From: Macrostomum lignano
Lineage: Eukaryota
Direction of reading: 5' to 3'
Assembly: GCA_002269645.1 (NCBI GenBank)
Contig: NIVC01003826.1
Location: 10,944 to 74,943, forward strand
Length of the DNA stretch: 64,000 nucleotides
Shown one piece after another: positions 1 to 57,669 of the stretch; positions within the stretch are counted from its first letter, which is position 1, and each line of letters opens with the position of its first letter. The notes beneath the pieces were generated by a model that was not told the DNA's origin, did not search any database, and saw nothing but the letters and a program-made list of their open reading frames with translations. The position numbers and the translations under genes were made by a program.

Positions 1-1722
1 GCCATCTTTCTCATACTCATCAATCTGGAACTCGACCCTCATGGAGAGGTACGACTCGGCAGTTTGGGGGATGACGCTCACCCTCCAACCAGTCATGTCA
101 CCCAGCGCAGTTGAGAAAATCAAATGCAGGTCATATCCGCGAAGATTGTGGAAAACTATTGGCAAAAATCGCCGTTTTAGCCGAGCAAGCTTGTTACACG
201 AAGCGCAGGCAGCACCCTTGTATTCACCGCTGAGGTGGTCGTGATCCCAGTGCTTGTCAGAAGATGAAATAAACACTGCATTGCATAAATAGCACTGTGG
301 GGCATCTTGAAAGCTGCGCCTGTTGTCATCTCTGTTTCTGTCAGCAATCTGATGACTAAACTCGGTATTCCAACCATAAACTTCACGAGCAAGACGTTCG
401 AGTGAGGCCAAAAACTGTTTCACGACAGAATTCGGATTGGGTCCGCTGCAGAGGAAAACATCCTCACTCGGCCTCAGAATTTTGCTGCTCATACCCTCTC
501 TTGGAATAACAATGTAGCCAGCAGCTACAGGTACATGCTCAGTTAACTTGGTGACAGTAACTTCTCTTTCAGACTCCACTGGTTCACGTGGGGTGTTCAG
601 AGCTTCAAAATCTGCGTAGACAACAAATGGGGGACTGATTGTCTTTTCCCAAGCCATGAACTGCATTGTGTTGCTACTTGCATCAGGCATGCGCTCCATG
701 ATGGCTGGTTTCAGTTGAGGATTGCAGCTGTCTCGATGCTGCTCCAACTCTTCCTGGGATCGAAACGGAGAAATGCACTTCTCACACCATTTGCGATTCC
801 TCAGACCTTTTTTGCTGTTCAGGAGCCGGTCCAGGTTCGAAACTGCACACCAGTGTCCAGTCCCACAATTCTCATCACCACCACCATCATCATCAGCATC
901 ATCGGTGCTGGAGTTGCGAAGCAAGAGTAGAGGAATAACCTTGCGAGAGGCACAAATCCCAGGAAGAGGCTGGCGAATGACATAGGCCTCATCATCTTCC
1001 CAGCTAAAAACTGTGAAACAGATTTCGGAATTATTTTCCTCTATAACGTTTAAATCGGAAATTGCGACTGGTAGTGCGATGCCGCTCAGATCGATTTCAT
1101 CCAACCATCTGCTGTAAGTTGTTAGTCGATGGCAAGACTTCATCACACCAGGATCTCTGATGTGCAGGTAAGCGAGACAGGCAAACAGAAAGCAATTGTT
1201 TCCATCGCTCGGTGGGTTGATTATGGCCTTCTTAACCGCCAGCTGATTGGGCAAAGTAAAATTCGCGCATCGTCCACGATAGTAGCGAATGCGATCAGTG
1301 AGGGCAGAGCACAGATCAAAATAGTTGATTTGCTCAACCATCCAACCGCTCCCATTTGAATTGTAGGCATCAATCTTGCGTTCCAGCTCAGAAAACTGCT
1401 GCAACCACCACAATTCAAAATCTCTTAGATCAGAGAGAAGCTCAAGACCGCATGCGATCCACTTATCTTCTGCATTGATTACCGCAGCTTCCTTGATTCT
1501 CACCATTCTGATGTTGAACTTAAGCTGCGCTCGAATAGATTTATTCTCGTATGAATCGAATCTCATCTCAACAGCCTGTAGCACTGCAAACTTCGTTGAT
1601 GATAAAAAATGAAATGGCTCGAGATCTCTTGATGCTGGAGTGAAGCGTCTGACCTGCAGCGTGTCATCATGCGCACTAGCGTGAATAGCCGAGCTGAATT
1701 GAATGCCTGCATGAATTAGCAT
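1..1722 (-). CDS. polB: Protein-primed family B DNA polymerase, N-terminal half (Polinton type), 3'-truncated by the window edge
   Basis: Manual translation gives an ATG at 1722 and no stop over 574 codons to position 1. Motifs: KIDAYNSNGSGWMV, KKAIINPP..NNCFL, PFVVYADFE (Exo I), CYLC...DHDHLSGEYKGAACASCN, IVFHNLRGYDLHLI (Exo II). All align with element 2 PolB (SRGSGWVV, PFVVYADFE, DHCHYTGKFRGAAHNTCN, FCHNAKNYDMHLI). Confidence 0.9.
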   Translation of the reverse strand, partial: MLIHAGIQFSSAIHASAHDDTLQVRRFTPASRDLEPFHFLSSTKFAVLQAVEMRFDSYENKSIRAQLKFNIRMVRIKEAAVINAEDKWIACGLELLSDLRDFELWWLQQFSELERKIDAYNSNGSGWMVEQINYFDLCSALTDRIRYYRGRCANFTLPNQLAVKKAIINPPSDGNNCFLFACLAYLHIRDPGVMKSCHRLTTYSRWLDEIDLSGIALPVAISDLNVIEENNSEICFTVFSWEDDEAYVIRQPLPGICASRKVIPLLLLRNSSTDDADDDGGGDENCGTGHWCAVSNLDRLLNSKKGLRNRKWCEKCISPFRSQEELEQHRDSCNPQLKPAIMERMPDASSNTMQFMAWEKTISPPFVVYADFEALNTPREPVESEREVTVTKLTEHVPVAAGYIVIPREGMSSKILRPSEDVFLCSGPNPNSVVKQFLASLERLAREVYGWNTEFSHQIADRNRDDNRRSFQDAPQCYLCNAVFISSSDKHWDHDHLSGEYKGAACASCNKLARLKRRFLPIVFHNLRGYDLHLIFSTALGDMTGWRVSVIPQTAESYLSMRVEFQIDEYEKDG

Positions 1723-1807
1723 GTTGTTGGATGTACGCGTTTCACTCGACAGTTAAAATTTATAAATCATATTCCTAATTCCACCTCATTATGGTGCGGG
1801 AATTGGT

Positions 1808-2447
1808 TAATCGGGAATCAGTGAATCGGGAATCGGCGAATCGGGAATCGGTGAATCGCTAATCAGTGAATCAGGAATCGGGAATCAGTGAATCGGGAAT
1901 CGGCGAATCGGGAATCGGTGAATCGCTAATCAGTGAATCAGGAATCGGGAATCAGTGAATCGGGAATCGGCGAATCGGGAATCGGTGAATCGGGAATCGG
2001 CGAATCGGGAATCGGTGAATCGCTAATCAGTGAATCAGGAATCGGGAATCAGTGAATCGGTGAATCGGTGAATCGGGAATCAGTGAATCGGGAATCGGCG
2101 AATCGGGAATCGGTGAATCGGGAATCGGCGAATCGGGAATCGGTGAATCGGGAATCGGCGAATCGGGAATCGGTGAATCGCTAATCAGTGAATCAGGAAT
2201 CGGGAATCAGTGAATCGGTGAATCGGTGAATCGGGAATCAGTGAATCGGTGAATCGGGAATCAGTGAATCGGTGAATCGGGAATCAGTGAATCGGTGAAT
2301 CGGTGAATCGGTGAATCGGGAATCGGTGAATCGTGAATCGGGAATCGGTGAATCGCTAATCAGTGAATCAGGAATCGGGAATCAGTGAATCGGTGAATCG
2401 GTGAATCGGGAATCGGGAATCGGTGAATCGGCGAATCAGGAATCGGG
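1808..2447. repeat. Short-unit satellite built from GGAATCG/GTGAATCG 7-8-mers
   Basis: About 640 bp of permuted (G/GT)GAATC(G/A) units directly upstream of the polB start. Confidence 0.95.
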
Positions 2448-3232
2448 TTTTATGACTACTTTTTCTTGTACTTATAGAGGGAAGAGTCTACTTTACTGGC
2501 TTTACTAATCACATTGGATTGACTCACTGGTTGGTTCGATTTCGATAGCAAAATTGGTAGACTCAAGCGGCCGATCACTTGCTGATGATGATGATGAAGT
2601 TTCTCTCGAAGAAGGCATCTCGGTTCGGTTGATGACACGGCTTAGAGCATTTTCGATGAGAATTAGATGAGGAAATTTGCTGAAATACATATTTGTGAAA
2701 TTATTTTTTCTTGCAAAAGTAAATTTAAATCCCTAATTTGTGGATATACGCTCGTATTAAGTGTACATATTTTCGAAAGTTGTACTTCGGGTCTTGTCGT
2801 TACGTGTCAAATTTCGGGGTCTAATAAAGGGTCTAATAAAAGGGTTTAATAAAAGGGTCTTATAAAACGAATTCTAAAAATATTTCAAAATAACTCAAAG
2901 CTGCAAACTTTTCCAAAATTCAGCGCTTCATTGCGCTTTAAAATTTATATTTTAAAAAAGCAATGATACGCTACATTATTAGAAGCACAAGTTAAAGAAG
3001 GAGATTACAAACCCAAACAGAATCAAACCCAATCTGCATTCACACCCAAGCACAGCTTGATCAACGCGCACTGCCTGCATAAATATGAACTTTAAAAATA
3101 GCAATGAGATGTTGAAAAGGAAAATAAATATTATTCACTTTTGCAATATACAGATAATCATCTCGCAATTTAATTCAACACAGAATGTTTGCTAATTTAA
3201 TATTTAACGACTGGTACATTAGAATTATTAGT

Positions 3233-4144
3233 TTAGAATTGAGAATTGCTCAGGCGAATACGGAAAGCCCCTCCCAAGTCAATCCAATATTCACCCGTAA
3301 CACTGTTGGGCAGAACCAGCTGGATGCAGAGAGGTGCTGGCTGCTGCACTTCATTAGCGGCCGCAGGCTGAACCTCAGTCGGTGGTGGCGGTGGTGCAGG
3401 CGCAGGGCCTGAGTCCATATCGCGAATCAGGTCAGACAGGCTGACTTCGGCCGCAGGCTGAACCTCAGTCGGTGGTGGTGGTGGTGGAGGCGCAGGGCCT
3501 GAGTCCATATCGCGAATCACGTCGGACAGGCTGACTTCTGCCAGCATCCTGGCACGCTCCATATTTTTTTCGGGAACAGGGATTGCACGCCGCTGCTGCT
3601 GCTGTTGCATTTCTTGCTGCTCCTGTGCTTCAGGCTCACCATCGAGGTTCTCGAAGAAAGCGGTGTCCAGCTCATTCAGCTCGAAGTCAGGGGTGCCACC
3701 TCCATCAGCAGCATCAAGCAGGGGAGCTCCGACATCACCGTCGAGTAGAGCAGCAGAAGCAGCAGCAGGCTGGGCGTTGGGCTGGTCACCAGTGTTCGTT
3801 ACTCGGCCGCATAAGCTCGTGATAACTTGACTCAAAGTGCTCACCGGCTCTCGAATGCGTTCTGCCGCCCTGTTGCGTTCCTCTTGACGTGCAACTTCCA
3901 GAGCAGTAATGCGTGCCTGCTCGCGGTCTTCAGCAGAGCTCCAATTAACAGTCGAATGATTTTTATGCCTTTTGATTTGGCCTCTAACGGTGAAGAGCTC
4001 AACGGACTGGCATTCATGGCATAGTAGCCATCGGGTGACACTGCAGCCTTCATTCGCTACATGGTGCTTTAGTCCACCGAGCATACTAATATTGCAGGTG
4101 ACACACACCTCATGAACGTAGGATGGGCACCGAGAATGGCTCAT
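3233..4144 (-). CDS. Polinton accessory protein, 303 aa: Cys/His (B-box-like) N-terminus, coiled-coil, acidic/Pro-rich tail with a 30-aa duplication
   Basis: True ATG in an AAACCATG context and an uninterrupted ORF. Pattern CVTC...CHEC...HKNH. A 90-bp direct duplication at about 3358-3540 encodes AEVSLSD(V/L)IRDMDSGPAP...TEVQPA twice. Confidence 0.7.
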   Translation of the reverse strand: MSHSRCPSYVHEVCVTCNISMLGGLKHHVANEGCSVTRWLLCHECQSVELFTVRGQIKRHKNHSTVNWSSAEDREQARITALEVARQEERNRAAERIREPVSTLSQVITSLCGRVTNTGDQPNAQPAAASAALLDGDVGAPLLDAADGGGTPDFELNELDTAFFENLDGEPEAQEQQEMQQQQQRRAIPVPEKNMERARMLAEVSLSDVIRDMDSGPAPPPPPPPTEVQPAAEVSLSDLIRDMDSGPAPAPPPPPTEVQPAAANEVQQPAPLCIQLVLPNSVTGEYWIDLGGAFRIRLSNSQF

Positions 4145-5575
4145 GGTTTAAAATTTAATCAAGGGTTTTTGTGAAAATTTGAAATTTCGAAGTCCGTTTA
4201 AATCTCAACAAAATATATTTTAATGGCTCAGTAGAATTTTTCAGTCCTTATATTCAAATCACCAGGCAATATCGCCTATATGTACACATACAGATATGTT
4301 TACACGTTACATATGTGTATGCACTAATTATTTTCTTACCGTTATTGAGCAATAATAATAATAAAACTGATAACATTCCCCCGTCCCGTGCATCAGTTAG
4401 TTTTAAAGACCTCCACCCCAGACCTGCACCCCACTTCCCCGCGGCCAAATCAGCAGTATCAAGAAAAACAATAACAAGGCAATAAACGGCGCTTTGCAAG
4501 CTCACTTTCACAACAAATTCAGTCCAATTTGCGAGACTCGTACTAAAGTGCGGAGGAACTCATGAACATAGGCCTATGTATTCCCACTGCCAACAAAGTT
4601 TAAATATTGTGGAGATCGGAAGCCAGGTTCGCCCAATTTTCAATTAACTATGGCTAATGTACACTAGAGAAGTTTTTTACTATTTTTAGAGAGTCAGTTT
4701 TGGGCTTCCCAGGAACTTGTGCTGCTTTCCCCTGCGGCAGAGTCCACCAATCCATTTACATAGAGCTCTATTCGGCTTTTTTCATTGAAGATCGAGTAGT
4801 AGGAAAATGAAAAGCGTCAAATTTTTCTTTTTTTGTCTAATTAGCTTAATTACTTCTCAAAGGATAAAAACATTTTCATTTAAAATCTAGAAACTAGTAT
4901 TCTTTTGAAATGTTTGAAATGTTATTTCAAATTCGTCCTTTCGTTTCTATAGAAATACGATAAAAGATCGAGAAAATTTCTCGAACCGAATTCCAGAATC
5001 GGATCGCGGTTTTGGAACCGACTATGAAAACGGAACAGACAATATGAAAAGCTTCGAACCGATTCTGGTCCTGGAATCGGTCATATGAAAAGCCCGTATA
5101 TTTCGCTGTCCGACCCCCCCCCATGGAAATTCCGTGGCTTTCCCTGCGGCAGAGTCCACCAATGCATTTACATAGGCGCTATGTTTACACACTATAGGCC
5201 CGTGGTTTTCCCACGGAAATTCCTGCGGCAGAGTCCACATTTCCCCTACTACTCTTACAGCAACAACAAACGGCATTCAAAATTGGTTTTCTTTTAAGCG
5301 TTGATGACTAGCAATCTATACCCCCTCCTGTTGGGGCGGCAGCAAAGAAACGAGTAAAACTTTGAGTAAACTACTTGTAGCTTTTGACCTTTAAGAGCCA
5401 CTATTATTAGTTTTTAAAAGAAAATATTATGCAAAGCAAAAAAGAAAAAAAGTTTTGAGCTTTGGCATCAAAGCTTCCTTTTAAGCCATGGCTTAACCTT
5501 AACTCTTCCTTTGATTTTTTGGCCTACCAACAACTCCCAATTGACCCTTGAAATCTCAGCAAAGGACACTGCCAC

Positions 5576-13532: not shown

Positions 13533-16347
13533 CTAGGCCCCGTGCCGATGGCCGAACCCTAGCGAGATGCCCGCCACCAAACAGAAGCCAATCAGAGTGG
13601 CGGCAAACTTGACGCCCTGACGACTGCGTCCGTCTTCGCCATTGCCAGCTGGTGCCAGCTCTGGCGGCAGCAGTTCTATGAATATCACATAGGCGAACGT
13701 GCCCGAGGCCAGGCCCTGCGAGTTCGGTGCGAGGGGTGGGTGCTCTGTGTTATGGAAAAGAGACGGTCCGGCATGTAAGAGTTGACAGTCTGTGGCATGC
13801 AAGAGTGATAGTCCTAACATGTAAGAGTGACAGTCTGCGGCATGTTAGAAGGACAGTCTGTGGCATGCAAGAGTGACAGTCCTAACATGCAAGAGTGACA
13901 GTCTGCGGCATGTTAGAAGGACAGTCTGTGGCATGCAAGAGTGACAGTCTGTGGCATGCAAGAGTGACAGTCTGTGGCATGCAAGAGTGACAGTCTGTGG
14001 CATGCAAGAGTGACAGTCCTAACATGTAAGAGTGACAGTCCTAACATGTAAGAGTGACAGTCCTAATATGCAAGAGTGACAGTCCTAACATGTAAGAGTG
14101 ACAGTCCTAACATGTAAGAGTGACAGTCCTAATATGCAAGAGTGACAGTCTGTGGCATGCAAGAGTGACAATCCTAACATGTAAGAGTGACAGTCCTAAC
14201 ATGTAAGAGTGACAGTCCTAATATGCAAGAGTGACAGTCTGTGGCATGCAAGAGTGACAATCCTAACATGTAAGAGTGACAGTCTGTGGCATGCAAGAGT
14301 GACAGTCTAGAATGTAAGAGCGACAGTCCAGCATGTAAGAGTGACAGTTTCAATATGAAAGAGTGACAGTCCATACATGTAATAGTGACAGCCCGGTATA
14401 CAAGAGTGATAGTCTGTGGCATGCAAGAGTGACAGTCTGTGGCATGTAAGAGTAACAGAAGACTCAGGCAGTCTAAAAGAGAAGAAAATTATGTTCAAAT
14501 TACTGCAGCAGAAATCACTAGATACTACTGTACAGTAGGATGTAAAGCTTTAGAAATCGGAATGGAGCTCAAGAGTAGAAACTTGTTCACAAGCAATAAC
14601 AAAAATGCCCCAGACAAGCCGCAAACCTGAAGCGCCGCCACTGCTCTGTGAGCGGAAATTGCCGATTCTCCAGTCTGACTGCCCACGCCAGCCTCAATAG
14701 CCAAGCCAATCGCTAAGCCGGCAGGTATTAACGCGGAGAACAGGCCAACAAGGCAAGCCTGCAGTCTGGGCGGCGCTCCGCCCCTCAGAAGGGCCACGCC
14801 AAGCGACAGGCTGCACAATGACTCGTGCATCAGCATAGCGGCTAGCAGGGTCAGCACGGTTGCGCCCGACTGGCTGACCCCGGCGCCAATGCCTTCTAAT
14901 AGGCTGTGCACGCCCATTGATAGGGTCAGCAGGATGGCGTTCATTGTGGCAGCCGGGCTTGACGAGTCTGGGCGAGGGAATGCAGTACGCGCTTTGCGGC
15001 TAGCTGGCTGTAAGTCCTATCTGTAAGCTTGTCTGTACACTGTAAGTCTGTCTGTAAGGTCGATCTATAAGCCTGTATGTACAGTCTGTCCGTAGGTCTG
15101 TCTGTAAAATTATGTCTGTAAGCCTGTCTGTAAGGCCTATCTCTAAGTTCTGTCTGTAGGCTTGTCTGTAAGGTCTGTCTGTAGGTCTGTCTGTAAGGTC
15201 TGTCTGTAGGCTTGTCTGTAAGGTCTGTCTGTAAGCCTGTCTGTAAAAGTCTGACTGTAAGATCTGTCTGTAGGTCTGTCTGTAAGGTCTGTAAAAGTCT
15301 GTCTGTAAGGTCTGTCTGTAGGTCTGTCTGTAAGGTCTGTCTGTAAGCCGGTCTGTAAGGTTTATCTGTTAGGATGTCTGTACTGTGTAAGCTTGTCTGT
15401 AAGCCCGTCTGTAAGCCTGTCTGTAAGGTTTATCTGTAAGCCTGTCCGTAAGGTGTGTCTGTAAGCCTGTCCGTAAGGTGTGTCTGTAAGCCTGTCTGTA
15501 AGCTTGTCTGTAAGGTCTGTCTGTAAGCCTGTCTGTAAAGTCTGTCTGTAAGCCTGTATATAAGCCTGTCTTGAGGAAAGTCGATCTATCAGTACAAAAA
15601 AGGCAGCTAACCAGCTCCAATGAAGAAGTCGTGATGGTGATGGCCGTGATGCTGCAGCTGGTGGTGCGACCGGTCAAAGGCGGTCTCCTCAGCGTCATTC
15701 TCGTCCTCGTCGCCGGAGTCGGCCAGCAGAGGAGCCGCGCCGCTCAATGACACCGAAGACGAATCAGCTGAAGACGGCGATGAGATCAGCTGATCACCGT
15801 TCGACATTCGTTCGCCGTTAGCTTGCCGTTGCAGCTGTCTTTTTCGCCATTGGGGCAATTGCAATTGCCGTTGCTTTTGCTGCTGCTTCTCTTTGGAAAA
15901 GCAGCAATGGCCGGAGCAGGCCCAGTGAGCGAACAGGTCCAAGGCCCAGACGGCAAAGAAGCCGGACATCAAGCTGAGCTCAGTGAGCGGCAGGTGGCTA
16001 CCCGGATACAGGCGAAGGAAACTGGCTCGAACCGAGGGTAACAGGCCGACAAAGCAGGAGGCCAGAAACACCCCGGCGCTGAAGCAACTGGCCGGGCTCA
16101 TCCAGGCCCGCAGACGGCTTCCGCCGCCGCCCCTGGACCCAGCAGTGCCAGTTCCAAGGCACCGAGCCCGGAGCGCTAGCGGCAATAATCCAGCCATTAT
16201 ATTGGCGGCAAAGATCAAAGGGATTCCAATAGCTTTGATCGTAACGTAGCCGTCGCCGGTGTCATCGTGGTTGATGTCGACGCCGGACAAAGTCGACGGC
16301 GTTGTTGAATTTGGGGCCACGGAGTGCAACTGGAATTGGCGATGCAA
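13533..16347 (-). CDS. ZIP (SLC39 subfamily II, ZIP1-3-like) metal transporter, 3 exons, start codon unresolved
   Basis: Exons about 16329/16347-15612, 15003-14627 and 13715-13533 join in frame over GT-AG introns. Motifs: SCFSAGVFLA, a His-rich loop (HHQLQHHGHHHH), TM4 HSLLEG, TM5 MHE, LQGLASGTFAYVIFIELLP. Position 16347 is TTG, not ATG. Confidence 0.9.
13780..14455. repeat. Intronic 22/23-bp minisatellite (ZIP intron 2)
   Basis: Units GACAGTCTGTGGCATGCAAGAGT and GACAGTCCTAACATGTAAGAGT. Confidence 0.95.
15010..15560. repeat. Intronic degenerate short-unit satellite (ZIP intron 1)
   Basis: Repeated CTGTCTGTAAG-type units. Confidence 0.9.
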
Positions 16348-20200: not shown

Positions 20201-22201
20201 AAACTAGAAATTCCACAAACTAAGATAGCAATTCCACAAGCTACCAATTCCACAAGCTAGCAATTCCATAAACTAGCAATTCCACAGACTAGCAATTCCA
20301 CAAACTAGCAATTCCACAGACTAGCAATTCCACAAGCTACCAATTCCACAAGCTAGCAATTCCATAAACTAGCAATTCCACAGACTAGCAATTCCACAAA
20401 CTAGCAATTCCACAGACTAGCAATTCCACAGACTAGCAATTCCACAAACTAGCAATTCCACAAACTAGCAATTCCACAAACTAGCAATTCCACAAACTAG
20501 CAATTCCACAAACTAGCAATTCCACAAACTAGCAATTCCACAAGCTAGCAATTCCACAAACTAGCAATTCCACAAACTAGCAATTCCACAAGCTAGCAAT
20601 TCCACAAACTAGCAATTCCACAAACTAGCAATTCCACAAGCTAGCAATTCCATAAACTAGCAATTCCATAAACTAGCAATTCCACAAACTAGCAATTCCA
20701 CAAACTAGCAATTCCACAAACTAGCAATTCCACAAACTAGCAATTCCATAAACTAGCAATTCCACAAACTAGCAATTCCACAAACTAGCAATTCCATAAA
20801 CTAGCAATTCCACAAACTAGCAATTCCACAAACTAGCAATTCCACAAACTAGCAATTCCACAAACTAGCAATTCCACAAACTAGCAATTCCACAAGCTAC
20901 CAATTCCACAAGCTACCAATTCCACAAACTAGCAATTCCACAGACTAGCAATTCTACAAACATAAAAAACCACAAACTATAACACGAGGCTATTATTCTG
21001 CTAAAATATTCTACTTACTCCAGCCGTTTACCCTAAAGAATGCGCTCACCTGTGCCGTTGCACTGCGGACAGTTCACAACTCTGGAGCCAGGCTCAGCGC
21101 CAGAACCGCGACACTTTCTACAGTCGCCGACAGCGTTCACCTGTACAGCCTTGACAGCGCCGCAGGCGGCCTCCTCAAAGGTGAGCCGAAGCGACATCTC
21201 TTTAGCCGGCCCGAAGCCGAATACGCTCTCGGCGAAGCCTTGTGTTGCCGAGTCATTGTTGTTGAAACCGCTGAAATCGAAGCCGGCATCGCGAAAAATT
21301 CTACGAAACAGCTCTTCGGGATCAATGGAGCCGTGGTAGCTCTCGAAACCGCCCTGCGGGTGGAGTCAGCGGGAACAACAAGTGGGAAGAATATTTGAGA
21401 ATACTGATCCCGAATCTTTGAGAATACTGATCTCGAATCTTTGAGAATACTGATCCCGAATCTTTGAGAATACTGATCTCGAATCTTTGAGAATACTGAT
21501 CCCGAATCTTTGAGAATACTGATAATGAGAATACTGATCTTTGAGAATACTGATCCCAAAAACTTAAGAGTACCAAATCCCTGAATGTTAAGAATCCCGA
21601 ATGCTGAGAATCCCATATCTGTGAACGTTGAACATCCCGAATTACTGAATGTTGAGCATCCCGAATTACTGAATGTTGAGCATCCCGAATTACTGAATGT
21701 TGAGCATCCCGAATTACTGAATGTTGAGCATTCCGAATTACTGAATGTTGAGCATCCCGAATTACTGAATGTTGAGCATCCCGAATTACTGAATGTTGAG
21801 CATCCTATGAGCATTCTATTGTCCGCACAGAAAATAGAATTTCTACAATAAGCTACCTGGAACCCGCCACTGCCTCGGCCACTAGCTGAGGCGGACTGCC
21901 CGGGACCGCCACTGCCGCCTCCAGCCATGCCGTATGCGTCATACTGCCGCCGCTTGGCCTCATCCGACAGCACCTCGTAGGCCTCCGACACTTCCTGGAA
22001 CTTCTTAGCCGCGCCTGGATCATTCTTATTAACATCCGGGTGATATTTTTTAGCCAGCTGATAATAAGCCCGTTTAATATCTTTCTGATCGGCCTGACGG
22101 CCGAGGCCCAGTACTTCGTAATAGTCGCGTTTGAACAACGCTGACGATGTGCGCAGCGAGCGGCGACACATTAATGAAAGCCATGGCACTGCGGAGCGCA
22201 T
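17203..22201 (-). CDS. dnaja3: Mitochondrial type I DnaJ/Hsp40 (DNAJA3/Tid1-like), 5 exons, 447 aa
   Basis: Exons 22201-21857, 21353-21050, 20102-19810, 18741-18444 and 17306-17203 total 1344 nt, in frame, all introns GT-AG. Features: Arg/Ser-rich presequence-like N-terminus, J domain (DYYEVLG, HPD), G/F region, four CxxCxGx motifs ([32 protein letters not shown]), C-terminal domain and SLFDKLK tail. AATAAA at about 17098-17093. Confidence 0.93.
17325..18365. repeat. Intronic 23/24-bp minisatellite (DnaJ intron 4)
   Basis: Unit GGAGTGAGTAGAGGGCGGTTTAA. Confidence 0.95.
18884..19728. repeat. Intronic 35-bp minisatellite (DnaJ intron 3)
   Basis: Unit CAGTGGATTCCGCTACCCTCCTCAGGTGTATTCAT; about 24 copies. 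Confidence 0.97.
20168..20960. repeat. Intronic 16-bp minisatellite (DnaJ intron 2)
   Basis: Unit GCAATTCCACAAACTA; about 49 copies. Confidence 0.97.
21397..21808. repeat. Two intronic minisatellites (DnaJ intron 1): 23-bp and 24-bp units
   Basis: GAGAATACTGATCCCGAATCTTT (about 21397-21560) and GAATGTTGAGCATCCCGAATTACT (about 21625-21808). Confidence 0.93.
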
Positions 22202-25040: not shown

Positions 25041-26117
25041 ATGCCGCGGCGAAGTGCGAGAAGCGAAGTGTCCGAAGATCCGCCAGACGAGCTTCTGCCA
25101 GGTTTGGACGACCTCGGCCAGAACATCAGGCCCCAGGATGTGAGAACGATGATGGCAGCTCTGCAGCAGCAGATTGAGCGGCCGGTAAGCAAGTCTGTTA
25201 AAATTGTAAAGTACACGCCCAGCCAGGACATCCACGTCTGGCTCGCCGCGTTCGAGCAACGCTGCGAGATGGAGCATATCGAAGACCCGATCGAGATGGA
25301 GCATATCGAAGACCCGATCGAGATGAAGCAGCACCTCGTTGCGAGTTTAGATCTGGCGACTGCTTACCCGGCTCTGCTCAGTATGCACCTCTCACGCTAT
25401 GCTGGCTACGAGGAGGTCAAGCAGCGATTGATCGAGAGATTCGCCCGCCACGGTGGCGCTGATGAATATCGAGAGCTGCTGAGGCGCCGTCAGCAAGGCA
25501 AGAACGAGTCAGCAGAAGAGTACGCTGATGCCCTGCGCACCTTGGGAGAGCGAGCGTACCCTCGAATGCACCCTGAGGATCGAGAGCGGGAGCTGGCTGA
25601 TCAGTTCCTAGCTGGCATCAGGACGACACCAGATCTGCGCGAGCGGCTCTATTGGGTCCGCCCGAACAATCTGCTAGCCGCTATTCGAGAACTCCATCGT
25701 CTGGAAGGCGCCAAAGAACTGGTGCAGCGCTCTGCTCAACCCCCGGTTCGCATGCTGAACGGGGAGCGCGACGGTGACCCGACGCCCGACGCCACCGCTC
25801 AAGCTCTCCTAGCCCTGACTGATCTGCTAGAGAAACAGCAGCGACTGCTAGACAACCTGGTGCAGCGTGACCAGCAGTAGAAGACGAGTCCGCCTGCGAA
25901 AGCCATGATCTGCTATGGCTGCGGTCAGCCTGGTCATCGCAATGCACAGTGCCCGTTACGCCAGAACCAGGGAAACGGCGAGACGGAGAGCGCCCACGGC
26001 AACGCCCTCCGCAGAGCCCAAGCCCCGGCTACTTGGCAGACTCCGAACGCTCACCAGAAGAAGAGGATGTCGGCTGCGCAGGCGCCAATGCCCAGTCCGA
26101 CAGTCGCTCATCAGTAA
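25041..26117 (+). pseudogene. gag: gag (capsid plus CCHC zinc knuckle) interrupted by an in-frame TAG
   Basis: First true ATG at 25041. Capsid-like WLAAFE...QGKNESAEEYA...QFLAGI. TAG at 25878-25880 is followed in frame by CYGCGQPGHRNAQC. A 24-bp duplication gives MEHIEDPIEMEHIEDPIE. Confidence 0.85.
25970..26011 (+). promoter_or_regulatory. Putative -1 programmed ribosomal frameshift signal
   Basis: G GGA AAC heptamer in gag phase (25970-25976), a 7-nt spacer, then a CGGAG-A-GCG/CGC-C-CTCCG stem-loop. The -1 frame is open to 26233. Confidence 0.7.
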
Positions 26118-26157
26118 GTGAGGCTGAGTGCGGAGGTTTCGTGGACACCTCCGATGA

Positions 26158-29100
26158 TCAAAAATCCATGCGCGTGAGGCTGATCCGTACGTCACCGGCC
26201 GATTGGCGGGCCGAGAAGTCCCTTTCCTACTAGACAGCGGCAGTCGGAAAAACTTTCTTGGAGCGTCGACCTGGGCCAATGCTAGACGTCGGATGCCTCG
26301 TTGTATCATATCGCATGCTATCCCGGATTGCGTGACCATGTACGACGGTACGCAACTACCCCTTGCGTGTAAGGTGATCATCTCGGTGGAGTTCGGTGAT
26401 GTCGTCGCGGACACCGAATTCCTGGTCACGGTCATCGATTGTGAAAATTTGCTTGGTATTAATTTCATGCGTGAACACTGCCAAAACTTGGACTTTGCTC
26501 AAGGAATGTTAAAGTTCAACAATGGCGCGTGCATTCCCGTTTGCTATTCGCGCCGTGAGCTTCAATCATGCCGGGTGTACACCTCCGAGAAGTGCACTCT
26601 GCCGCTGAGAAGCTCAGCGCTGTTGGCCGTCCAGTTGGATGTCGGCCACCCCGAGAACCGAGGATCGCCATCAATCGTCGAGCTGGTGAAGTCGAGACTG
26701 CACCCCAGCTGCAACACTCTGGAAGCAGCTCCAGCTCTGATGACGATGCCTGAAGGTCGAGGCTACATCGAGGTCGTCAACACTGCTGACTGCGAGGTGT
26801 TCCTGCAGTCGGGCATCCGCGTTGGTGTTGCGACACCACTTAGAACTGCCGACCTGATGTACCTGGAAGAGACGCTGGAACCTGAAGTGCGAAATTTGCC
26901 AAGGAGCCCTGAAGAGTCCAGCACAGCTTGGCTAGAGGAAGTCGAGATCAACAGCGAACTGTCCGAAGATCAACGACAGAGAGTGCGAGATCTACTAGTT
27001 AAGTGTCAAGCAGCCTTCTCGAAGCACCTGCTAGACGCTGGCCTGACACACCTGGTGACTCACGAGATCATCCTGAAGGATCGGACACCAGTCGCGCTAC
27101 CACCGCGCAGGATCCCGCCTCATCTGAAGGACAAGCTAGACGCGCTGCTAGACGAGATGCTGGCGAAGCACATCATTCGCCCAGCTTATTCTAGCTACAA
27201 CTCGCCAATGCTGATAGTGCCCAAGAAGGACGGCAACATCAGGCTGGTGCATGACTTCAGAGCTCTCAACGACAAGTGCGTGTACCACCCGTACCCGCTG
27301 CCGCACATTCAGGAGACCTTCGCGAAGCTGCGTGGTGCCCAGTGGTACTCTAGCTTGGATCTCGCTCAGGGATTCTGGCAGATCCCGCTGCGCGACTGCG
27401 ATCAGCACCTGACGGCGTTCTCTGTGATTGACCGCGGACAATTCTGTTTCAATGTTCTACCAATGGGTCTCCACGATAGTCCAGGCAGCTTTCAGCGTTG
27501 CATCAATAAGCTCCTGGACGGTCTGACGCCAAAGACTGTGCTTGGCTACATGAACGACATCGTGGTGCACTCCGTGACCTTCGAGGAGCAGCTGGACAAC
27601 CTGCGGACTGTACTCCAGCGGATTATCGCAGCCAACCTCAAGGTCAAGCCGAAGAAGTGCCATTTGTTCCTCAAGGAGCTGCATTATCTAGGCCACGTCG
27701 TGACTCCCAACGGCCTGAAGACCTGTGAGGACAAGATTGCGCAGATCCGTGATTGGCCCGTGCCACAGTCCGTTACTCAACTGAGACAATTCCTAGGCCT
27801 CGCCAATTACTACCACAAGTTTGTCAACGGCTACGCTGGATTTGCTGCGCCGCTGCATGCCCTGACTCGAAAGGACATCGGCAGCCTGCGGCAGCATTGG
27901 ACTGATGAGCACCAGGTAGCGTTCGACACGTTGAAGAAGAAGTTGTGTTCGACTGAAGTTCTCGCTCTGCCTGAGTTTAACTCAGATCCTGATGTGAAGT
28001 TTGTCCTAGACACTGATGCCTCAGACATTCGCATAGGCGCTTGTCTTGGACAACGGCAATCCGACGGCGTCGAGCGCCCAATTGCATTCTTTAGTCGGAA
28101 ACTTCGTGATCCTGAGAAGCGCTACACGGTCACGAAGAAAGAGCTGCTTGCAATCGTGGACGCGATGCGACATTTCCGTCACTATTTAATCGGCAAGAAG
28201 TTTGAAGTTCGTTCTGACCATCGGGCCTTGCTGTGGCTGCTGAACCAGACGCAGGTCACAGGCATCTTGGGCCGTTGGATTGAGCGATTAAGCGAGTTCC
28301 GCTTCCAGCTTCACCATCGCAAAGGCAAGGACCACGCCAACGCTGACGCCCTGTCAAGACGCCCGGAGACACCACCGATTGACTTCGAACATGGCCGACT
28401 GCTGGAGCACTCCGGTTCTGCAGCCCGACCCGGTGATGACACCAGCCTGGAGCAGGACTTGGACACCACACGTGGGGCCACTGCGAGAGCAGCCCGCACG
28501 AAGAAGGTCCACACTCGCAACAAGGAGGCCGAAACTGCCCTGGCCGAAGACCTGGAGGCCACTGCGCCAGCAGCCCTTCAGCACGACGATCATCACTGCA
28601 GTCAACGCCTGGAGACCAGTTTGGACAGCAACCCGGAGGCCACTGACACCTCAGCCCTCCGCAGCGACGCCCACGCCGACTGCCGTTACTTGGAGATTCG
28701 CCCGGACAAAACCTCGGAGGCCACTGCTGACGTAGACCTCCTTGATGATGTCCAAGACTGCGGATCTCGGAACCTGGAGACGCCCATGGACTACGACTCA
28801 GAGGCCACTGAACAAGCAGCTCTACTGATGACAGCCCACAACACGAATCCAGACCAGCAATGTAAGTTCAACTCCCCGGAGTTTTGCGCTGAGAGTTCTC
28901 GCCGTGTTGACAGAGGCCAGACTCTCGCGACGGCTGCAAGGTCAACGCTCTGTCCCCCGAGCCGACAGACAGCTGCTCATCGCCTGTGCGGAAAGTCGAG
29001 TCCCCCTTTGCGACACCGCCCAGTGCTGGAGAAGACTCACCCAATGACGACGATGATCGAGCCGACGGCTACGGCTGCCTGCGACGAGGCGGGCTTCACG

Positions 29101-29379
29101 TGTTGCGTCTCGCCTTACAGCCAAGAGTCGCCTGGGCTGTGCAGTGGAGGCAAGTGCACTGCACCAGCTGCGGAAATTCCTGTCAAGAGAGCGACGATGA
29201 GAACTTCGAAACGAGATCAGCGATTGTACGCCGACGTTGCGAGACAAAGTCCCTCGGAGCGACCTAATCCTGACGCCGACAAGACGGAGTCGCGTGATCA
29301 ACTGCGAGCCACAGAAGCGGAGGCTGAAGAAAAATCCGGAACCCTCAGCCATGCCGCGCCGTGCTCACCGATTTTCTGA
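26158..29379 (+). pseudogene. pol: pol: aspartic protease, reverse transcriptase, RNase H and a long linker
   Basis: YVTGRLAGREVPFLLDSG; LVHDFRALN, SSLDLAQGFWQI, PMGL, YMND (YxDD mutated at 27553); DTDASD, KELLAI, NADALSR. Confidence 0.92.
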
Positions 29380-31502
29380 GGTTGCCGATGACGCGGCAAC
29401 AGTTTGTCGACGCGCAGCGCGCCGACCGAGCTATCAGCTATGTGCTCAATTTGGTCGAGAACAAAGCCCCGAAGCCTGAGTTCGACGCCCGGTTGCGGCT
29501 GACGAAGGAGCAGCGGAACCTGCTCGGATATTACGATAATCTACGAGAAGACAACGGCCTGCTGATGATCGATCTGACTGATGGCCAGCAGCCCCCGAAG
29601 GTTGTCCTGCCCGAAGCTCTAGATGCCCAGGTGCTCCAGGAGCTCCACAGTTCGCCACTGTGTGGACACCTCGGCCAGACGAAGACGTTGAAGCGGCTAC
29701 GTGAACGATTCTGGAGGCCCGGACTAGCCCGTGTCACCGAGAACTTTATTAGTAAGTGCCGCGCCTGTCTTGAAAGTAAATCCCGAAGACGAGACCGAGT
29801 ACCTGTACAGAGCTTCCCTGTGTGCGAAGTTCTGGGAAGAGTACATTGCGACGTAGTAGGCCCTATTGCCCAGAAGAGCAAGAGCGGAAACCGCTACATC
29901 TTGACGCTATGCGACGCGAATTCGAAGAACCCGTTCGCCTATCCGATGAGGAACCAGAAAGCCAAGACGGTCATCAAGATCCTGCAGGAGCGCTTGATCC
30001 CTGACTTTGGTGTACCATGCTGGATACACACTGATCAAGGAACCAATTTCATTGGCTCAGCTTTCAAGAAGTTCTGCGACCTGTTTGGCATCCGGCATAC
30101 GACGACAACACCGTACAATCCATCTTCAAATGGGCAAGTCGAGAACCTCAACAAGCAGCTGAAGAGTGTCCTCACCTGCCTCCTCGAGCGCAACCATAAC
30201 GACTGGGACACCTTTCTCCCAGCCTGTCTGATGGCTCTCCGCTCTAGTGTACACCCGGTGACAGGCTTCACGCCACACTACCTGGTGTTTGGTCGAGATT
30301 TTCGACTACCAATCGACAACGCGATCAAGAAGCTGCCGGAGTATGCCGATCTGCCTGACTATGTTAATGACTTCCAGCGCCGATTGGACGAAGCAACCGA
30401 ACTGGCCAAAGACCGCCTGCATCTGCACCAGCAGCTGCGCGACGAGCCCTACTCGAACCTGCCCGCCGCCAAGAAGCTCCAACCTGGTGACCTGGTTTTC
30501 CTCAACAACCCGGTGCTCGAACCGGATGAAGCGGCGAAGTTCCATCGACCTCGCAAAGCGCTGTACGAGGTAGTCGAACCCAAGGGCGAGGTCGTCTACA
30601 AGATTCGCCGTAGAGTGCCAAACCCGCGGGCCAGACGCGACGAGCTAGTAGTCCATCGCCGGAATCTGCTGCTCGTACCTGATGCCGACTACCAGCTGAC
30701 TTCGGATCCAGAAGTCGACAAGGCCAAGAAGCGCCGCAGGTCGACTGATACCCCGGACGGTGCAGGACCCGCGACCCTGACACCGATCCCGGAGGACGAT
30801 CCCGATGACGATGATGATGACGATGACGCATGGTTGGCCTTCCGGTGGCACTTCCGGCCGTTGGCGATCCCGGATGTGCGGCCAGGAGGTGGACCGGTCA
30901 CGACACCAGCGAACCAGGCAAGTGCATTTCGGCGTGAGCCACTGCCGTATGGTGATCGCCATGATGGTGTGCCTGGTTTGAATGCGTCTGCACCTGCTGC
31001 TTCTTTTTCACCTGTCCATGCGTCTCCTCTTCCCGAACCTTTTTCTGCGGTGCAGTCTCCTGCGCCACCTTCTTGCACCACTCAGGTGGAAGCGTCTCCC
31101 ATACCAGTAGTGGTAGGTAGGCCAGTTAGGGATCGGAGGCCGCCGGAGAGGCTTCTGATTAGCGATCGTAGGGCCAAAACGTACGTTAGTCGCACCGCCC
31201 GCATGCGTGTGCACAAATTAAAACCTTGCAGCGCAGAAATGCACAAGCGACAGCACCAGCCGACTCCAAGCTCGTCATCCGAGAGTGACCAGGGCCGGCC
31301 CAGTCGGAGCCGCCAAAGGCCGGGCACCCCGTCCTCCCCGGAGGTCATGGGCATTCCGCGCCGGCCTCTCGCCACTCGCCAATTGGCCCAAGTGGAGGGC
31401 CGCGAGCATCCAGAGCGCCCGCCTCGACGCGGACGGGAGCACGGCCGGCGAAGCGACTCGCCATCGCCGGAGCCGCGGATCACAGGACACTGTCAGGGCT
31501 GA
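29361..31502 (+). CDS. int: Integrase (HHCC, DDE, GPY/F-like) with a long low-complexity tail, frameshifted from pol
   Basis: HSSPLCGH...KCRAC; HCDVVGP, HTDQGTNF, GQVENLN; RPVRDRRPPERL in the tail. Confidence 0.9.
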   Translation: MLTDFLRLPMTRQQFVDAQRADRAISYVLNLVENKAPKPEFDARLRLTKEQRNLLGYYDNLREDNGLLMIDLTDGQQPPKVVLPEALDAQVLQELHSSPLCGHLGQTKTLKRLRERFWRPGLARVTENFISKCRACLESKSRRRDRVPVQSFPVCEVLGRVHCDVVGPIAQKSKSGNRYILTLCDANSKNPFAYPMRNQKAKTVIKILQERLIPDFGVPCWIHTDQGTNFIGSAFKKFCDLFGIRHTTTTPYNPSSNGQVENLNKQLKSVLTCLLERNHNDWDTFLPACLMALRSSVHPVTGFTPHYLVFGRDFRLPIDNAIKKLPEYADLPDYVNDFQRRLDEATELAKDRLHLHQQLRDEPYSNLPAAKKLQPGDLVFLNNPVLEPDEAAKFHRPRKALYEVVEPKGEVVYKIRRRVPNPRARRDELVVHRRNLLLVPDADYQLTSDPEVDKAKKRRRSTDTPDGAGPATLTPIPEDDPDDDDDDDDAWLAFRWHFRPLAIPDVRPGGGPVTTPANQASAFRREPLPYGDRHDGVPGLNASAPAASFSPVHASPLPEPFSAVQSPAPPSCTTQVEASPIPVVVGRPVRDRRPPERLLISDRRAKTYVSRTARMRVHKLKPCSAEMHKRQHQPTPSSSSESDQGRPSRSRQRPGTPSSPEVMGIPRRPLATRQLAQVEGREHPERPPRRGREHGRRSDSPSPEPRITGHCQG

Positions 31503-32277
31503 AGCCCCTGAAGTGATCGATCTAACGGCTGATTCCCCGCCGGAGATCAGCAGTGTTCGCCGACTCATGGCCCAGCGGTTGGCCGCGGCTTTTGCCTACG
31601 TCCAACTGAAGCAGGAGGTCAGCCGAGGCCTCCAAGCGGTCCGCCGCCACATTGCTGATTCTTTTTCAGGAGCGGGACCAGAAGCCCTGGGTGCAGCCCG
31701 CCAACATGATCCTGGCGAGGCCACGAGTGCCGGGCCGCGGAACGCGCCGGCAACAGGGATCCATTATGCGCAGGCGGAGTCGCCGATGTTGATCGCCGAC
31801 GGCGTTCCGCTGCCAAGTAGCGGCCACAGAGATCCAGACCCGCCGAACGACCCGTGGGACGACCTTCGGGAAGCGTTGGGCCGCGAGCTGCCCCGCGCCC
31901 CGCCGCCCACGCCGGCGGACCCGCCACTACTGGTCCATGTCGGCACCCAGACCAGCGAGCTACCGGATGATGACGGACGAGCGGCGCTGCTGACCGCCGC
32001 CTCTTGCCTGGCGAGTAATCTGTTAGGCAGCGCGGCCCGCCATGGACACGTGCCCGCTGTGCTCGCGGGCCCTATCTGGAACAGCCTGCGCCAGACTACC
32101 GTCATTGAGCGCATGACAATTATGGAAGAGGCTGTTCGCCTGAGCGGCTCTGATCTGCAGCCGCCGCTGCGGCCGTACGCCGCGCACCATGCCACGCTGG
32201 TCGTGATGCGACACCTCGGCGGCAGCGAGGCAGAGCTGCCTGCGGTCCTGGCTCGCCCTCCGCTGGACTATCTGTAA
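31285..32277 (+). CDS. Extra ORF 3' of integrase, unknown function, no env features
   Basis: 330-codon open frame; first internal ATG at about 31567; EVIDLTADS at about 31510; helical C-terminal part. No signal peptide or TM segment. Confidence 0.55.
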   Translation: MTRAGPVGAAKGRAPRPPRRSWAFRAGLSPLANWPKWRAASIQSARLDADGSTAGEATRHRRSRGSQDTVRAEAPEVIDLTADSPPEISSVRRLMAQRLAAAFAYVQLKQEVSRGLQAVRRHIADSFSGAGPEALGAARQHDPGEATSAGPRNAPATGIHYAQAESPMLIADGVPLPSSGHRDPDPPNDPWDDLREALGRELPRAPPPTPADPPLLVHVGTQTSELPDDDGRAALLTAASCLASNLLGSAARHGHVPAVLAGPIWNSLRQTTVIERMTIMEEAVRLSGSDLQPPLRPYAAHHATLVVMRHLGGSEAELPAVLARPPLDYL

Positions 32278-36800: not shown

Positions 36801-39800
36801 AGGAATTTTTGACATACATTTTAGGGAAATTTTTTGTTTTTGGTATACACTGGCATACATTTACCTGAGATAGGATTCTTGTTCAGCATATACTACTACA
36901 CAATCTGGACCCTGGTATGCTAGATTAATCTGGCGTATACTCACAATTTTTGGTATACTACTTGGCATATAATTTTTTTTACACTGGCATACTATCTGGC
37001 ATATAAAAATGGATATTGAAAAGTGTTTAGATATATAGAATGTAGTTCAGAGTTTTTTATGTTTACGAGTATGTCACAGTCAGGCTTTTCATATCTTGTA
37101 GGCCTAGTTGCAGAATCAAATTGTGAAATAAAAGTGAATTTAAATGGAAAGTAATTATTTTGAACGAATGAAATAAATCTTGGCATATATTGACTTCTTG
37201 CTATAAAGAGTATTAGCAAAAAAGCAAAAAAGTAAAATGAAGGAGCAAAAAAGGTCATTTAGTGTGCCGCAACACTAGAAATAAAGCTTGTAACAAGCCT
37301 TCTTTTTTCTAGGATTACAAATTTTTCGAGTTGGAAAAAAATTGCTATATGCCATAAACTAGCACATCATATAAATTGCCAGATTTTAGTCTGGCATACA
37401 TTCAAGATGTTTAAAACTATGGCTATTGCCTTTGTCAAAGTGGGTCACTTTTTTATTGAGATAGGTTATTGGTTTACCAAATTTTATTTGGACAATCTGA
37501 CTTTGCCAGCTTTAACTTGTGCCAATTTTTGAGTAGGCCTAAGCTGAATTTATAGTTTATAACCTACAAAGCCCCCAAAAATATTATTATTAAATAGACC
37601 AAGACTTATTTATTCAATACAACACAAGTTTCATAACAATAAGGCTGAAGGGCTAAGTTGTAGTTTTTCAAATGGTAACAATTGCACCATAGGTGGTAGG
37701 CCTAATTTATTAAGCAATGCCTAGGGACTAGGGTTACCAGTTATTGGCCTAAACAATAAGGATATGTTATATGCCACTACCTTACTACCTAATTGCAAAG
37801 ACTATAAATTAATAGTCTAATAGCTTTAATTCAAATATCTTATGCATATTATCCAAATATCCTACGAATTAAAACACATTAATGACAAATTGACAATGAC
37901 TGACAATGGATAAGAAAAAATAAAACTGAAGTATATTTTTTATTGAGTAGAATAGACCTGGCTATAGGCCAAGGTCTTTTGCAAGATCAATGAAACACTT
38001 TGTGACAACTGGCACAGCAGAGACACAAGCAAACATACTGAACTAAGCCATGCACATGCAAATCATACAAATCCCGTGCCAAATAATCGAGAACTAAAAA
38101 ACCTAAAGTGTCTAGGAAAGTCGAACTTTGAATTATAGTGCTCGCGATTTTAAAATCCGACACATTTAAACAAAACAAAAGCTATCTAATTAAACTCTGG
38201 CTAATTATTTATCTATGAAAGACAGACTGACGACCTCAGCTGCTTGTATTCTACGGCTGTTAGTATATATTTACCGGAAGATGTTTTTATTAATTCGATT
38301 GATTTGATATAAGCATAGATAGATATAGATATATAGAATGTAGTTCAGAGTTTTTTATGTTTACGAGTATGTCACAGTGAGGCTTTTCATATTACCAATT
38401 CCAGAATCAGAATCGGTTCGGATCTACCAAGAAAAACAGCAGTATAACTATTTAATTCTGTTGAATGTTTGACTGCCTTAACAACCTCACTTAGCACAAT
38501 TTTCACTTTCTTCTTGGCGATTGTCATTCAATAATAAAAACTTTATAGCACGTATCTCCCTCTAGTTATGGAGACAAAAAGTTATACTTCACAAATTCGT
38601 TCTGGTTCTGGAACCAGAACAAGCAATATGAAAATTAGGCCCACTGTGTTAAATGTACCCATTACCGGAATAAAATTAATTGCAACACAAACTTACATGT
38701 TAATTAAAAGTTAAGTTACATCAAAATTGGTTGCAGGTTCTGTACATGCACAGAAATGTCGCCCATGGACCCCTGTATAAATAGCCAATATAGATATTGT
38801 ATTTTTAGTTCTGCAATTTGATCGCTTGGAAACAAATTTTATCCCTCGTCACGACGTGGATTTTGAACTGCCATGCATGTGTAATAACTAATGGGGAGCT
38901 CTTATTTGCATGTAAGTTCAGTCAGCTGATCTATTGATACTTTGTGAGTAAAAAACACACATTTGCATTCTGCGTCTATTTCGAGCGCACAGGAAATTGA
39001 AATGTTAAGCTCTACTTGTAGGACAGGGAATTAGACTCATGTAGCAGCGCTCGGGAAACAAATGAGCTACACAAATTAAAAGCCTACAGCGATTCGCGAG
39101 CAGAAATTATATACTCGGCAGCTGATCCAAACCAGAGAAGCATAATATAATTATAGGACGATGTCGTGATGTTTACAGTCAGTCTCTCGATCCATGCCGA
39201 TACAATTTGCAAATAAATACACTATACTCGTAAATTTACATGTAGGTCTTAGGTTCATTGTTCTGTGGTATCTTTTACATGTTTATTGTCTTTATATATC
39301 TTTATGTTTTTACCTGTACGTGTAAAAGTAGATTTTAAGGATGTGCAGGTCCCGTAAAAATACCAGAGCTACAGAGCTTATTGCCAGGCAAAACACATAC
39401 GAGCTACGTAGTACACCTTCTATTTCACCAACAACAACTGTCCATCACTCCATATACATGTAGCTGCTAGCTGCGTCTTCATCGACCAAAACGCGAGAAC
39501 CGCTAAATGCTAGTCGTGCTATGTTTGCAAGAATCGATTCTGCGAGGAGGGGGGGGGCAGCGAGGATCGACGGACATGCAGCAGACGGGACAGTGATGTG
39601 TCCTAACACGTGTGCCTCCATGGCACTTAAAGTCCTTTTCTCGCACAGTTTCCCTGATGGTGCGGCAAGCCAGCTGTTCCGCAATCCGCGGCACAAATCA
39701 ATTGCGACAGGCTCACAACTTTGCTTATGTGAATTATAGGAACGCTAAATGTAGCTATATACTCCTAAAACATTCAATAAGCTTTTAACCCTTATTAGAC

Positions 39801-40505: not shown

Positions 40506-40997
40506 CTAGCTGTCCGCCCACCGCCCTAAGGTTTCCATAACTTCAGGCGTCTGCAGAATTCTCAGCAGATCGGGATCCGTGAGGACGCCCTCAACGAATT
40601 CCTGGTGCGAGATCAGGCAGTTCCTATCCGTGTCCAGCTGTTTGAAGAAGTCTTCGCACACCTGCAGTGGCGTCTTTCTCAGCTGTACGCCGCGATCGCG
40701 AGCAGTCTGAAAGACGGTGTTCATTATAGTCAACACCTCGTCTTTTGAGATGCTGTGATCTTTATTGGCGTCAAATAATTCAAAGAATTGATGCGCCTTC
40801 TTGCGCAACAGTTCAGCCGAGCTGTGCGTCTTGGCTAGCAGGTTGAGAAAGTCAGATCGGCTTCCGGACGGCTGAGTGGCCTTGAAGTCAGCGTACAGCT
40901 GGCGCACCTGGTCTCCGGTCAGACTGCTGGCGTCGGCTAGGAATGCCACGGACTCGGCGTCGAGCTCCAGCGGGGCTACTGACCTGCACTGAGTCAT
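40506..40997 (-). CDS. Neuronal calcium sensor (NCS/recoverin)-like EF-hand protein, 163 aa, intronless, shortened
   Basis: True ATG. VRQLYADFKATQPSG resembles the NCS N-terminal/EF1 region. EF loops DANKDHSISKDE and DTDRNCLISHQE; NCS-like C-terminus EGVLTDPDLLRIL. Confidence 0.85.
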   Translation of the reverse strand: MTQCRSVAPLELDAESVAFLADASSLTGDQVRQLYADFKATQPSGSRSDFLNLLAKTHSSAELLRKKAHQFFELFDANKDHSISKDEVLTIMNTVFQTARDRGVQLRKTPLQVCEDFFKQLDTDRNCLISHQEFVEGVLTDPDLLRILQTPEVMETLGRWADS

Positions 40998-45243: not shown

Positions 45244-45378
45244 TATAAACGATATACGTTTAATAGCTCCTTCTATTTGTTTAGCCAATATTTTTGTTTA
45301 ATCAGTGAGTTACAGCGATCGATTTCACAATAATTTGATGTCGCCTTGATTTCCTAGAAATATTCCTAGAACATTGAG

Positions 45379-48671: not shown

Positions 48672-48785
48672 AGAAAAGAAACAAAGACTCATTATATTTT
48701 ATTTAAGATTTAAGATTATATTTTATTTTCGTAAAGGTGTTTTATGTTTACTAACAAACGACGACTGCAGAATCTTAAATCGAAA

Positions 48786-49748: not shown

Positions 49749-49757
49749 GAGAGAGAA

Positions 49758-50207: not shown

Positions 50208-50237
50208 TATTTTATTTAAAATTTTCTTTTTAAATAA

Positions 50238-51275: not shown

Positions 51276-51291
51276 AATATTAAAATAAAAA

Positions 51292-57653: not shown

Positions 57654-57669
57654 CTTTTAATAGCAAATT

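Follow-up and report, generated by a model that had tools for sequence, protein, structure and literature searches.

The left end of a 64,000-nucleotide stretch of DNA from the marine flatworm Macrostomum lignano (contig NIVC01003826.1 of assembly GCA_002269645.1, positions 10,944 to 74,943; here called the window) carries, with a probability of roughly 85%, one arm of an integrated Polinton/Maverick element. The arm occupies positions 1–5253 and is of the group 1 type (Beta, pPolB1). It belongs, on this reading, to a young multicopy family of M. lignano that is unrelated at the family level to element 2, a complete Polinton in the same window. The arm contains the coding frame of a family B DNA polymerase (PolB) with its domain order and catalytic residues kept, it ends at 5253, and several near-identical young copies of it exist. 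The family is real and has spread recently, and is a fairly ordinary member of a known group. Whether its members still move is doubtful.

The polymerase frame lies on the minus strand, opens with an ATG at 1722 and extends to the window edge over 574 codons without a stop; measured from stop to stop, it covers 1–1752. The remaining five frames hold 19–48 stops each, and 1000 base shuffles yielded open frames of 234 codons at most. The frame had been reported in an earlier note on this DNA, and the open reading frame (ORF) scan confirms it. That note also spoke of a “hidden” and “intact” PolB. The gene is indeed absent from the ORF track, and this is a window-edge effect: the frame runs off the edge and was missed because it has no stop inside the window. 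“Intact” holds for the 574 unbroken codons but not for the gene, as these are the noncatalytic half only, under half of an estimated 1250–1270 residues, with Exo III and the polymerase motifs A–C beyond the window. A TATAAA box lies on the minus strand at 1759–1764, 42 bases upstream of the ATG, and the ATG stands in a CAACATG context. By consensus, these two features may represent the promoter and start of PolB. Also inside the element, a satellite of period 15 with GAATC-type units fills 1797–2446 in approximately 43 copies.

The frame is predicted to encode a protein-primed family B polymerase (pPolB), of which the window covers the N-terminal half. A fold model based on a 74-sequence alignment reached a mean pLDDT of 87. 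A terminal-protein fold is modelled at residues ~10–144, of which 18–144 resemble the little-finger/PAD (LF/PAD) region of Y-family polymerases (Z 9.3, root-mean-square deviation (rmsd) 2.6, 108 aligned). This is followed by a putative OTU protease at residues 155–296 (Z 6.9, rmsd 3.4, 109 aligned) with C177 and H290, and by a zinc finger formed by C313, C316, H329 and C333. Residues 361–565 match family B exonucleases (Z 7.4, rmsd 4.4, 116 aligned), with Exo I at D371/E373 and Exo II at N526/D531. An HNH/EndoVII insert is modelled within the exonuclease at residues 457–525 (HNH nuclease, Z 6.0, rmsd 4.9, 68 aligned). The OTU, Exo I, Exo II and zinc-binding residues are all present and are conserved in the alignment.

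Pfam recognizes only Endonuclease_7 in this protein (residues 471–512, E 3e-7) and gives no match to DNA_pol_B_2 (PF03175). A full-library protein search returned 5642 relatives, 194 of them at E ≤ 1e-30, and the best viral fold matches are the PolBs of adintoviruses and MELD elements. The available text of Krupovic 2024 (PMC11161782) describes the Polinton pPolB layout as terminal protein (TP)-vOTU-EXO-PALM and derives the TP from LF/PAD. The fold assignment carries weight because the predicted domain order equals this layout and because the adintovirus/MELD PolBs are the best viral matches. Within the window, the order can be followed as far as EXO; PALM lies outside and is seen partly in the sister gene model P0003 and whole in the relative P0037. 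The Polinton PolB features named in the earlier note therefore stand, on the fold and on the 194 matches at E ≤ 1e-30, even though Pfam finds the endonuclease domain only.

The outer end of the arm is placed at 5253. The motif CTACTACT occupies 5246–5253, where the earlier note had put it, and occurs only once in the window. On the minus strand, the element end reads 5′-AGTAGTAG, an end of the (AGT)2 type; one AGTAGTAG is also found at 4795. By composition, approximately 2.3 such 8-mers are expected in 64 kb, and the terminal motif alone is therefore no evidence and outside support is needed. It comes from contigs of 4 of 24 listed runs, aligned to window positions 2455–5560. In run X13, a 119-letter contig of depth 3303 covers 5135–5253 and stops exactly at 5253. 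A second contig of the same run (675 letters, depth 202) matches 5254–5498 only from its letter 431 and has other DNA in front. This is the pattern expected of an empty site, with the element ending at 5253 and the duplication starting at 5254. Depth also drops from bin 5159–5262 to bin 5263–5366 in all four runs (6576 to 202, 395 to 17, 28 to 1 and 17 to 0). An (AGT)2 motif thus stands at a boundary backed by contig ends. An end at 5255 was considered and rejected, as the shared element contig stops at 5253.

The usual motif of Mavericks, according to the available text of Barreat and Katzourakis 2021 (PMC8097293), is an (AGT)2 end accompanied by a 6-bp duplication. A 6-bp target-site duplication (TSD), CTTACA, is predicted at 5254–5259 on the plus strand from the contig boundary, the end of element 2 and the Maverick TSD rule; its partner copy would lie outside the window. 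Internal contigs of X13 have depths of 398–1741. Typical internal depth exceeds flank depth in X13 (1350–1440 versus 202, about 7-fold) and in X1 (114–162 versus 21.5, 5- to 8-fold), and although depth is not copy number, this ratio hints at multiple copies. The terminal contig of X13 is approximately 2.4 times as deep as the typical internal ones (3303 versus 1350–1440), as two ends per element would give, with the same reservation on depth. Loose ends at 5155 in three runs lead into a related end with three ACT units.

The three copies of a 17-bp core that the window contains all lie in the subterminal region, at 4731, 5143 and 5222. The first two lie in longer repeats at 4727–4763 and 5139–5175, which agree over 37 bp at 95%, and the third (5222–5238) consists of the core only. 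Three direct repeats of ~20–38 bp had been claimed; the number holds, and only two of the three reach 37 bp. The core was found at five loci among viral contigs, which is about chance level by a rough estimate. A high-copy dispersed repeat lies within the stretch 4951–5120 (bounds approximate, from depth bins and loose ends). It includes 5055–5094, which matches 38381–38420 at 90%, and its depth reaches 27,700 in X13.

Element 2 is a complete Polinton of 18.6 kb at 45379–63975, with the ends AGTAGAAGG and CCTTCTACT and the TSD ATTGAG on both sides. It starts 40.1 kb from the arm, close to the 40 kb originally given. A Pfam scan identified its integrase, protease, ATPase, capsid, PLA2-like protein and protein X genes, and its PolB lies in pieces over 51801–55752. 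Its terminal inverted repeats (TIRs) are arrays of 81–82-bp units, with approximately 40 at the left end and 12 at the right end. The arm resembles element 2 in being a Polinton of the same host with AGTAG ends and the same PolB domain set. In element 2, however, PolB is fragmented and belongs to another clade, the TIR arrays are long, and the integrase adjoins PolB. ORF and Pfam scans found no integrase in 1723–5253 of the arm. The length of the element 2 integrase and its spacing to PolB match recurrent rows of the table of Jeong 2023 (PMC10748475), as far as that table is available.

No DNA similarity was found between the arm and element 2. Their PolBs are 23–29% identical in local alignments and 25% identical (63/253 residues) in the aligned region, in agreement with the divergence noted earlier, and on identity alone the two are different families. 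The phylogeny proposed in the earlier note gives separate clades. In a quick tree of 92 rows (9 of 101 dropped), the window PolB falls in a 30-row clade with a Shimodaira–Hasegawa-like approximate likelihood ratio test (SH-aLRT) support of 99, and element 2 is among the other 62 rows; a smaller tree agreed in placing them apart. By tree distance from the window PolB, element 2 ranks 140th of 168 rows (13 were dropped for coverage and 7 had no match). Motif C reads GGDTDS in all eight readable locus rows of the 30-row clade and in none of the other 62. The claim of a different terminus did not survive: AGTAGTAGG of the arm and AGTAGAAGG of element 2 have 8 of 9 terminal bases in common and are variants of one motif. 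What remains, from the PolB identity and the contig boundary at 5253/5254, is the end of a Polinton of another family. The predicted TSD at 5254–5259 and the proven one at 45373–45378 both end in AG when read into the element, which may be chance with two cases.

The nearest proteins to the window PolB are UniRef gene models named Macrostomum lignano, at 97–98% identity. Over residues 46–245, 17 of 19 models align throughout (two depart) and differ from the window by 4–7 of 200 residues. The 17 form eight haplotypes, none identical to the window copy. Near-identical copies among the gene models of the species indicate that the family is multicopy and, as had been thought possible, young. ORF2 (described below) or a 61-codon ORF upstream of PolB is also found inside several sister models, and the layout of the arm is therefore shared among copies. 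The 61-codon ORF (2505–2690, minus strand) has no Pfam match; the translated sequence is found again at the beginning of many sister models. Other copies, seen as contigs, skip 770–880 bases of the arm, and at many non-coding positions of the arm none of the contigs of the four runs agrees with the window. Together with the high-copy repeat, this implies that the window copy is not the commonest form. Two further M. lignano families (BOX15_Mlig020163 and Mlig004794) fall in the same clade as the window PolB (support 0.999, SH-aLRT 98) and are separate families at 49–60% identity. The closest full-length relative is P0037, with 48% identity and all polymerase motifs present; typical full-length relatives are at about 30%. 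No close relatives were found among viral contigs.

The arm resembles the group 1 Polintons, or Beta adintoviruses with pPolB1 (Starrett 2021, PMC8502044; Jeong 2023, PMC10748475; both as far as available), in its OTU-bearing PolB that scores poorly on PF03175, its animal host and its AGT-type end. Its assignment to this group follows the description in PMC8502044 and was made by description, not against named reference sequences. Neither the window PolB nor P0037 matches PF03175, in line with the Beta definition; named Alpha and Beta references are not in the tree. The sub-clade of the arm differs from typical group 1 in having GGDTDS in motif C and, often, C2H2 fingers at the start. No name for this sub-clade was found, and no paper search was aimed at it. 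Across a broad pPolB clade (P0037, P0039–P0044 and L013–L030), GGDTDS replaces YTDTDS in motif C, with GDTDS in all full-length members aligned. Vertebrate Mavericks, as described in the available text of PMC8097293, share the 5′-(AGT)2 end and lead to the expectation of a 6-bp TSD. In contrast to them, the arm has 3.5 kb between its end and PolB, with a satellite and an orphan ORF in that interval, and its family is known here from the PolB arm only.

The metagenomic Polinton-like loci L015, L018, L030 and L041 likewise encode a GGDTDS-type PolB with an HNH insert, and L015 and L018 form the sister group (SH-aLRT 87). Unlike the arm, these loci have single long PolB ORFs (1290–1615 aa where whole) with zinc fingers fused in. 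Among seven related loci, 81 ORFs were called and 50 scanned. With most ORFs scanned, all of the four long GGDTDS loci have an integrase with rve and chromodomain and an ATPase-like gene, two have a PLA2 gene and one a protease; a single capsid match was below the cut-off. L015 (14633–15139) and L018 (4707–5207) also encode a TATA-binding-protein domain (Pfam TBP, E 1e-15) beside the ATPase-like gene, and L015 encodes a KilA-N protein.

Two assemblies bear on how far the family is already catalogued: that of the window, and GCA_001188465.1, which is presumably also an M. lignano assembly. The former is assigned to M. lignano in the available text of PMC12801592, which contains neither “polinton” nor “maverick”. 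The flatworm pPolB1 loci that have an integrase close by number 748 in Jeong 2023 (PMC10748475, available part), where 78 rows of the table belong to GCA_002269645.1 and 175 to GCA_001188465.1. Among 84 of these rows, the PolB lengths 1221 (14 rows), 1263 (5) and 1280 (3) recur, mostly with an integrase 6.4–7.1 kb downstream. The stop-to-stop length estimated for the arm, 1260–1281, fits two of them (1263 and 1280), a link by length only to a table without sequences. That the family is already counted there is a lead, not proof. No papers on Macrostomum Polintons were found in the literature, Repbase and Dfam not being covered. Bulk catalogues nevertheless already list many M. lignano Polinton polymerases.

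Several points weigh against this account of the arm. The second TIR, the TSD partner, the integrase, the ATPase and the capsid of the family would have to lie outside the window. The exact boundary at 5253/5254 comes from one run; in X1 the match of the flank contig does not begin until 5292, and no contig bridging the junction was seen among those listed. The species is described as neopolyploid, in a source available in part. A homeolog may therefore account for the empty site, and the gene models may include redundant ones, so that their counts overstate the loci. The Z-scores of the single domains are middling, within the range that the tool calls common, and Foldseek against the PDB gave nothing at E ≤ 0.001, the top rows being Y-family polymerases. 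With 32 rows and 278 columns, an approximately unbiased (AU) test failed to reject a tree in which the two elements share a clade (p 0.065). Polymerase motifs A, B and C appear in no sister gene model; P0003 and P0015 include the PolB C-terminus and skip these motifs. Either broken copies or poor models may explain this. Because open frames, too, are skipped in part by these models, the missing motifs say little on integrity.

The rival that survives best is a defective or non-autonomous derivative. Here the arm is real, and this copy or most of its family has suffered a deletion or break to the left or has no capsid module. Such decay is a serious possibility, if not the favoured one. All 17 compared models differ from the window PolB at residues 58 and 225, changes private to this copy, and the skipped stretches and non-coding differences set the window copy apart from the others. 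The PolB of the neighbouring element 2 is in pieces, and 96% of vertebrate loci are eroded according to the available text of PMC8097293. On the other hand, 574 codons run without a stop and all catalytic residues examined are kept. The recurrent lengths of 1263 and 1280 codons, listed for open PolBs that have an integrase downstream (PMC10748475, available part), also fit the estimate of 1260–1281, again by length only.

A second rival keeps the element and changes its gene structure. ORF2 (3233–4144, minus strand, 303 codons) encodes a C2H2-like finger at residues 42–63, a charged helix and two 30-residue proline-rich repeats. A 90-bp tandem repeat in ORF2 (3358–3542, 2.1 copies) has more copies in the sister model P0003. 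Pfam gave no match to ORF2, its Atlas matches were all at or below 0.81, and among proteins of near length its only relative was a sister model; longer and shorter proteins were not searched. ORF2 is conserved, with 3 of 39 listed differences falling in its 912 of 2799 bases (p 0.0003, from 40 of 70 rows). Most probably it is a gene of its own with a separate start, either split off or an unrelated finger gene.

It could instead be exon 1 of a spliced PolB, with the satellite inside an intron of 1588 bases; a zinc finger and a low-complexity linker would then precede the terminal-protein domain. The candidate intron (1707–3294, minus strand) is in frame, has GT and AG sites at 3294 and 1707 with CTAAT just before the acceptor, and would join ORF2 to Gly6 of PolB. 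The same exact join is used by four sister models (P0003, P0013, P0015 and P0081) and falls just before the first strand of the predicted fold. C2H2 fingers begin 10 of the 16 clade PolBs examined, and the nearest sister group has a long low-complexity linker; the conservation of ORF2 is a further point in favour. Splicing is nonetheless unlikely. Unspliced contigs cross the donor in X2 and in X3 (RNA by guess only), and no loose end at the donor was seen among those listed. The models skip parts of open frames and others use a different first exon, which gives them an ab initio look. PolB has its own TATA box and ATG, and ORF2 has no sequence similarity to the N-termini of the clade PolBs (E > 0.3). 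Intact vertebrate Mavericks are described as intronless in the available text of PMC8097293. No direct report of a spliced Polinton PolB was found in the literature; introners have been reported in dinoflagellate elements (PMC11957031). Runs guessed as RNA cover non-coding parts alike, and no conclusion on expression is drawn.

Still less probable is a mobile family of the GGDTDS clade whose insertions differ between lines and whose finger module has shifted to an ORF of its own, which is either expressed alone or joined to PolB by splicing over the satellite-filled intron. In the weakest rival, the apparent end at 5253 arose by chance or through a misjoin, and the boundary of the PolB fragment lies elsewhere. 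It draws on the ~2.3 chance 8-mers and on the absence of a bridging contig among those listed, and is very improbable: in X13 the contigs of element and flank abut precisely at 5253/5254, the junction bins show a fall in depth in four of four runs, and 8 of 9 end bases match the TSD-proven end of element 2.

If the arm belongs to an autonomous Polinton, its life cycle may follow the established model in the available text of PMC11161782. At the AGT-repeat ends, the terminal-protein domain would act as primer for DNA synthesis; it would be cut off by the OTU protease, and the polymerase would copy the linear element. A retroviral-like integrase would then insert the element with a 6-bp duplication (same source). 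Packaging may be possible, judging from the literature; animal Maverick particles had not been observed as of a 2021 abstract. To the left of the window, the remaining ~2 kb of PolB would be expected, along with the second TIR and genes for the integrase, the ATPase and the capsid.

As it stands, the arm adds one more family to a genome with many catalogued Polinton polymerases, and matters little. If the insertion is polymorphic between laboratory lines, a young family in a tractable animal would allow expression, silencing and new insertions to be observed. A mobile family with a spliced PolB would, if real, be an animal Polinton with an intron in its core polymerase and otherwise intact, contrary to the reported rule that intact elements have no introns, and would provide a system in which to watch Polinton movement.

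The rest of the window contains a Gypsy-type long terminal repeat (LTR) retrotransposon at 25041–32277, with gag, a 1028-codon frame for reverse transcriptase/RNase H and a 704-codon integrase frame. An additional ORF of 236 codons in this element has no Pfam match. Pieces of host genes are found for a ZIP zinc transporter (14525–16197), DnaJ (21137–22201), an EF-hand protein (40506–40997) and a protein kinase (42257–43171), and lie among many minisatellite arrays.

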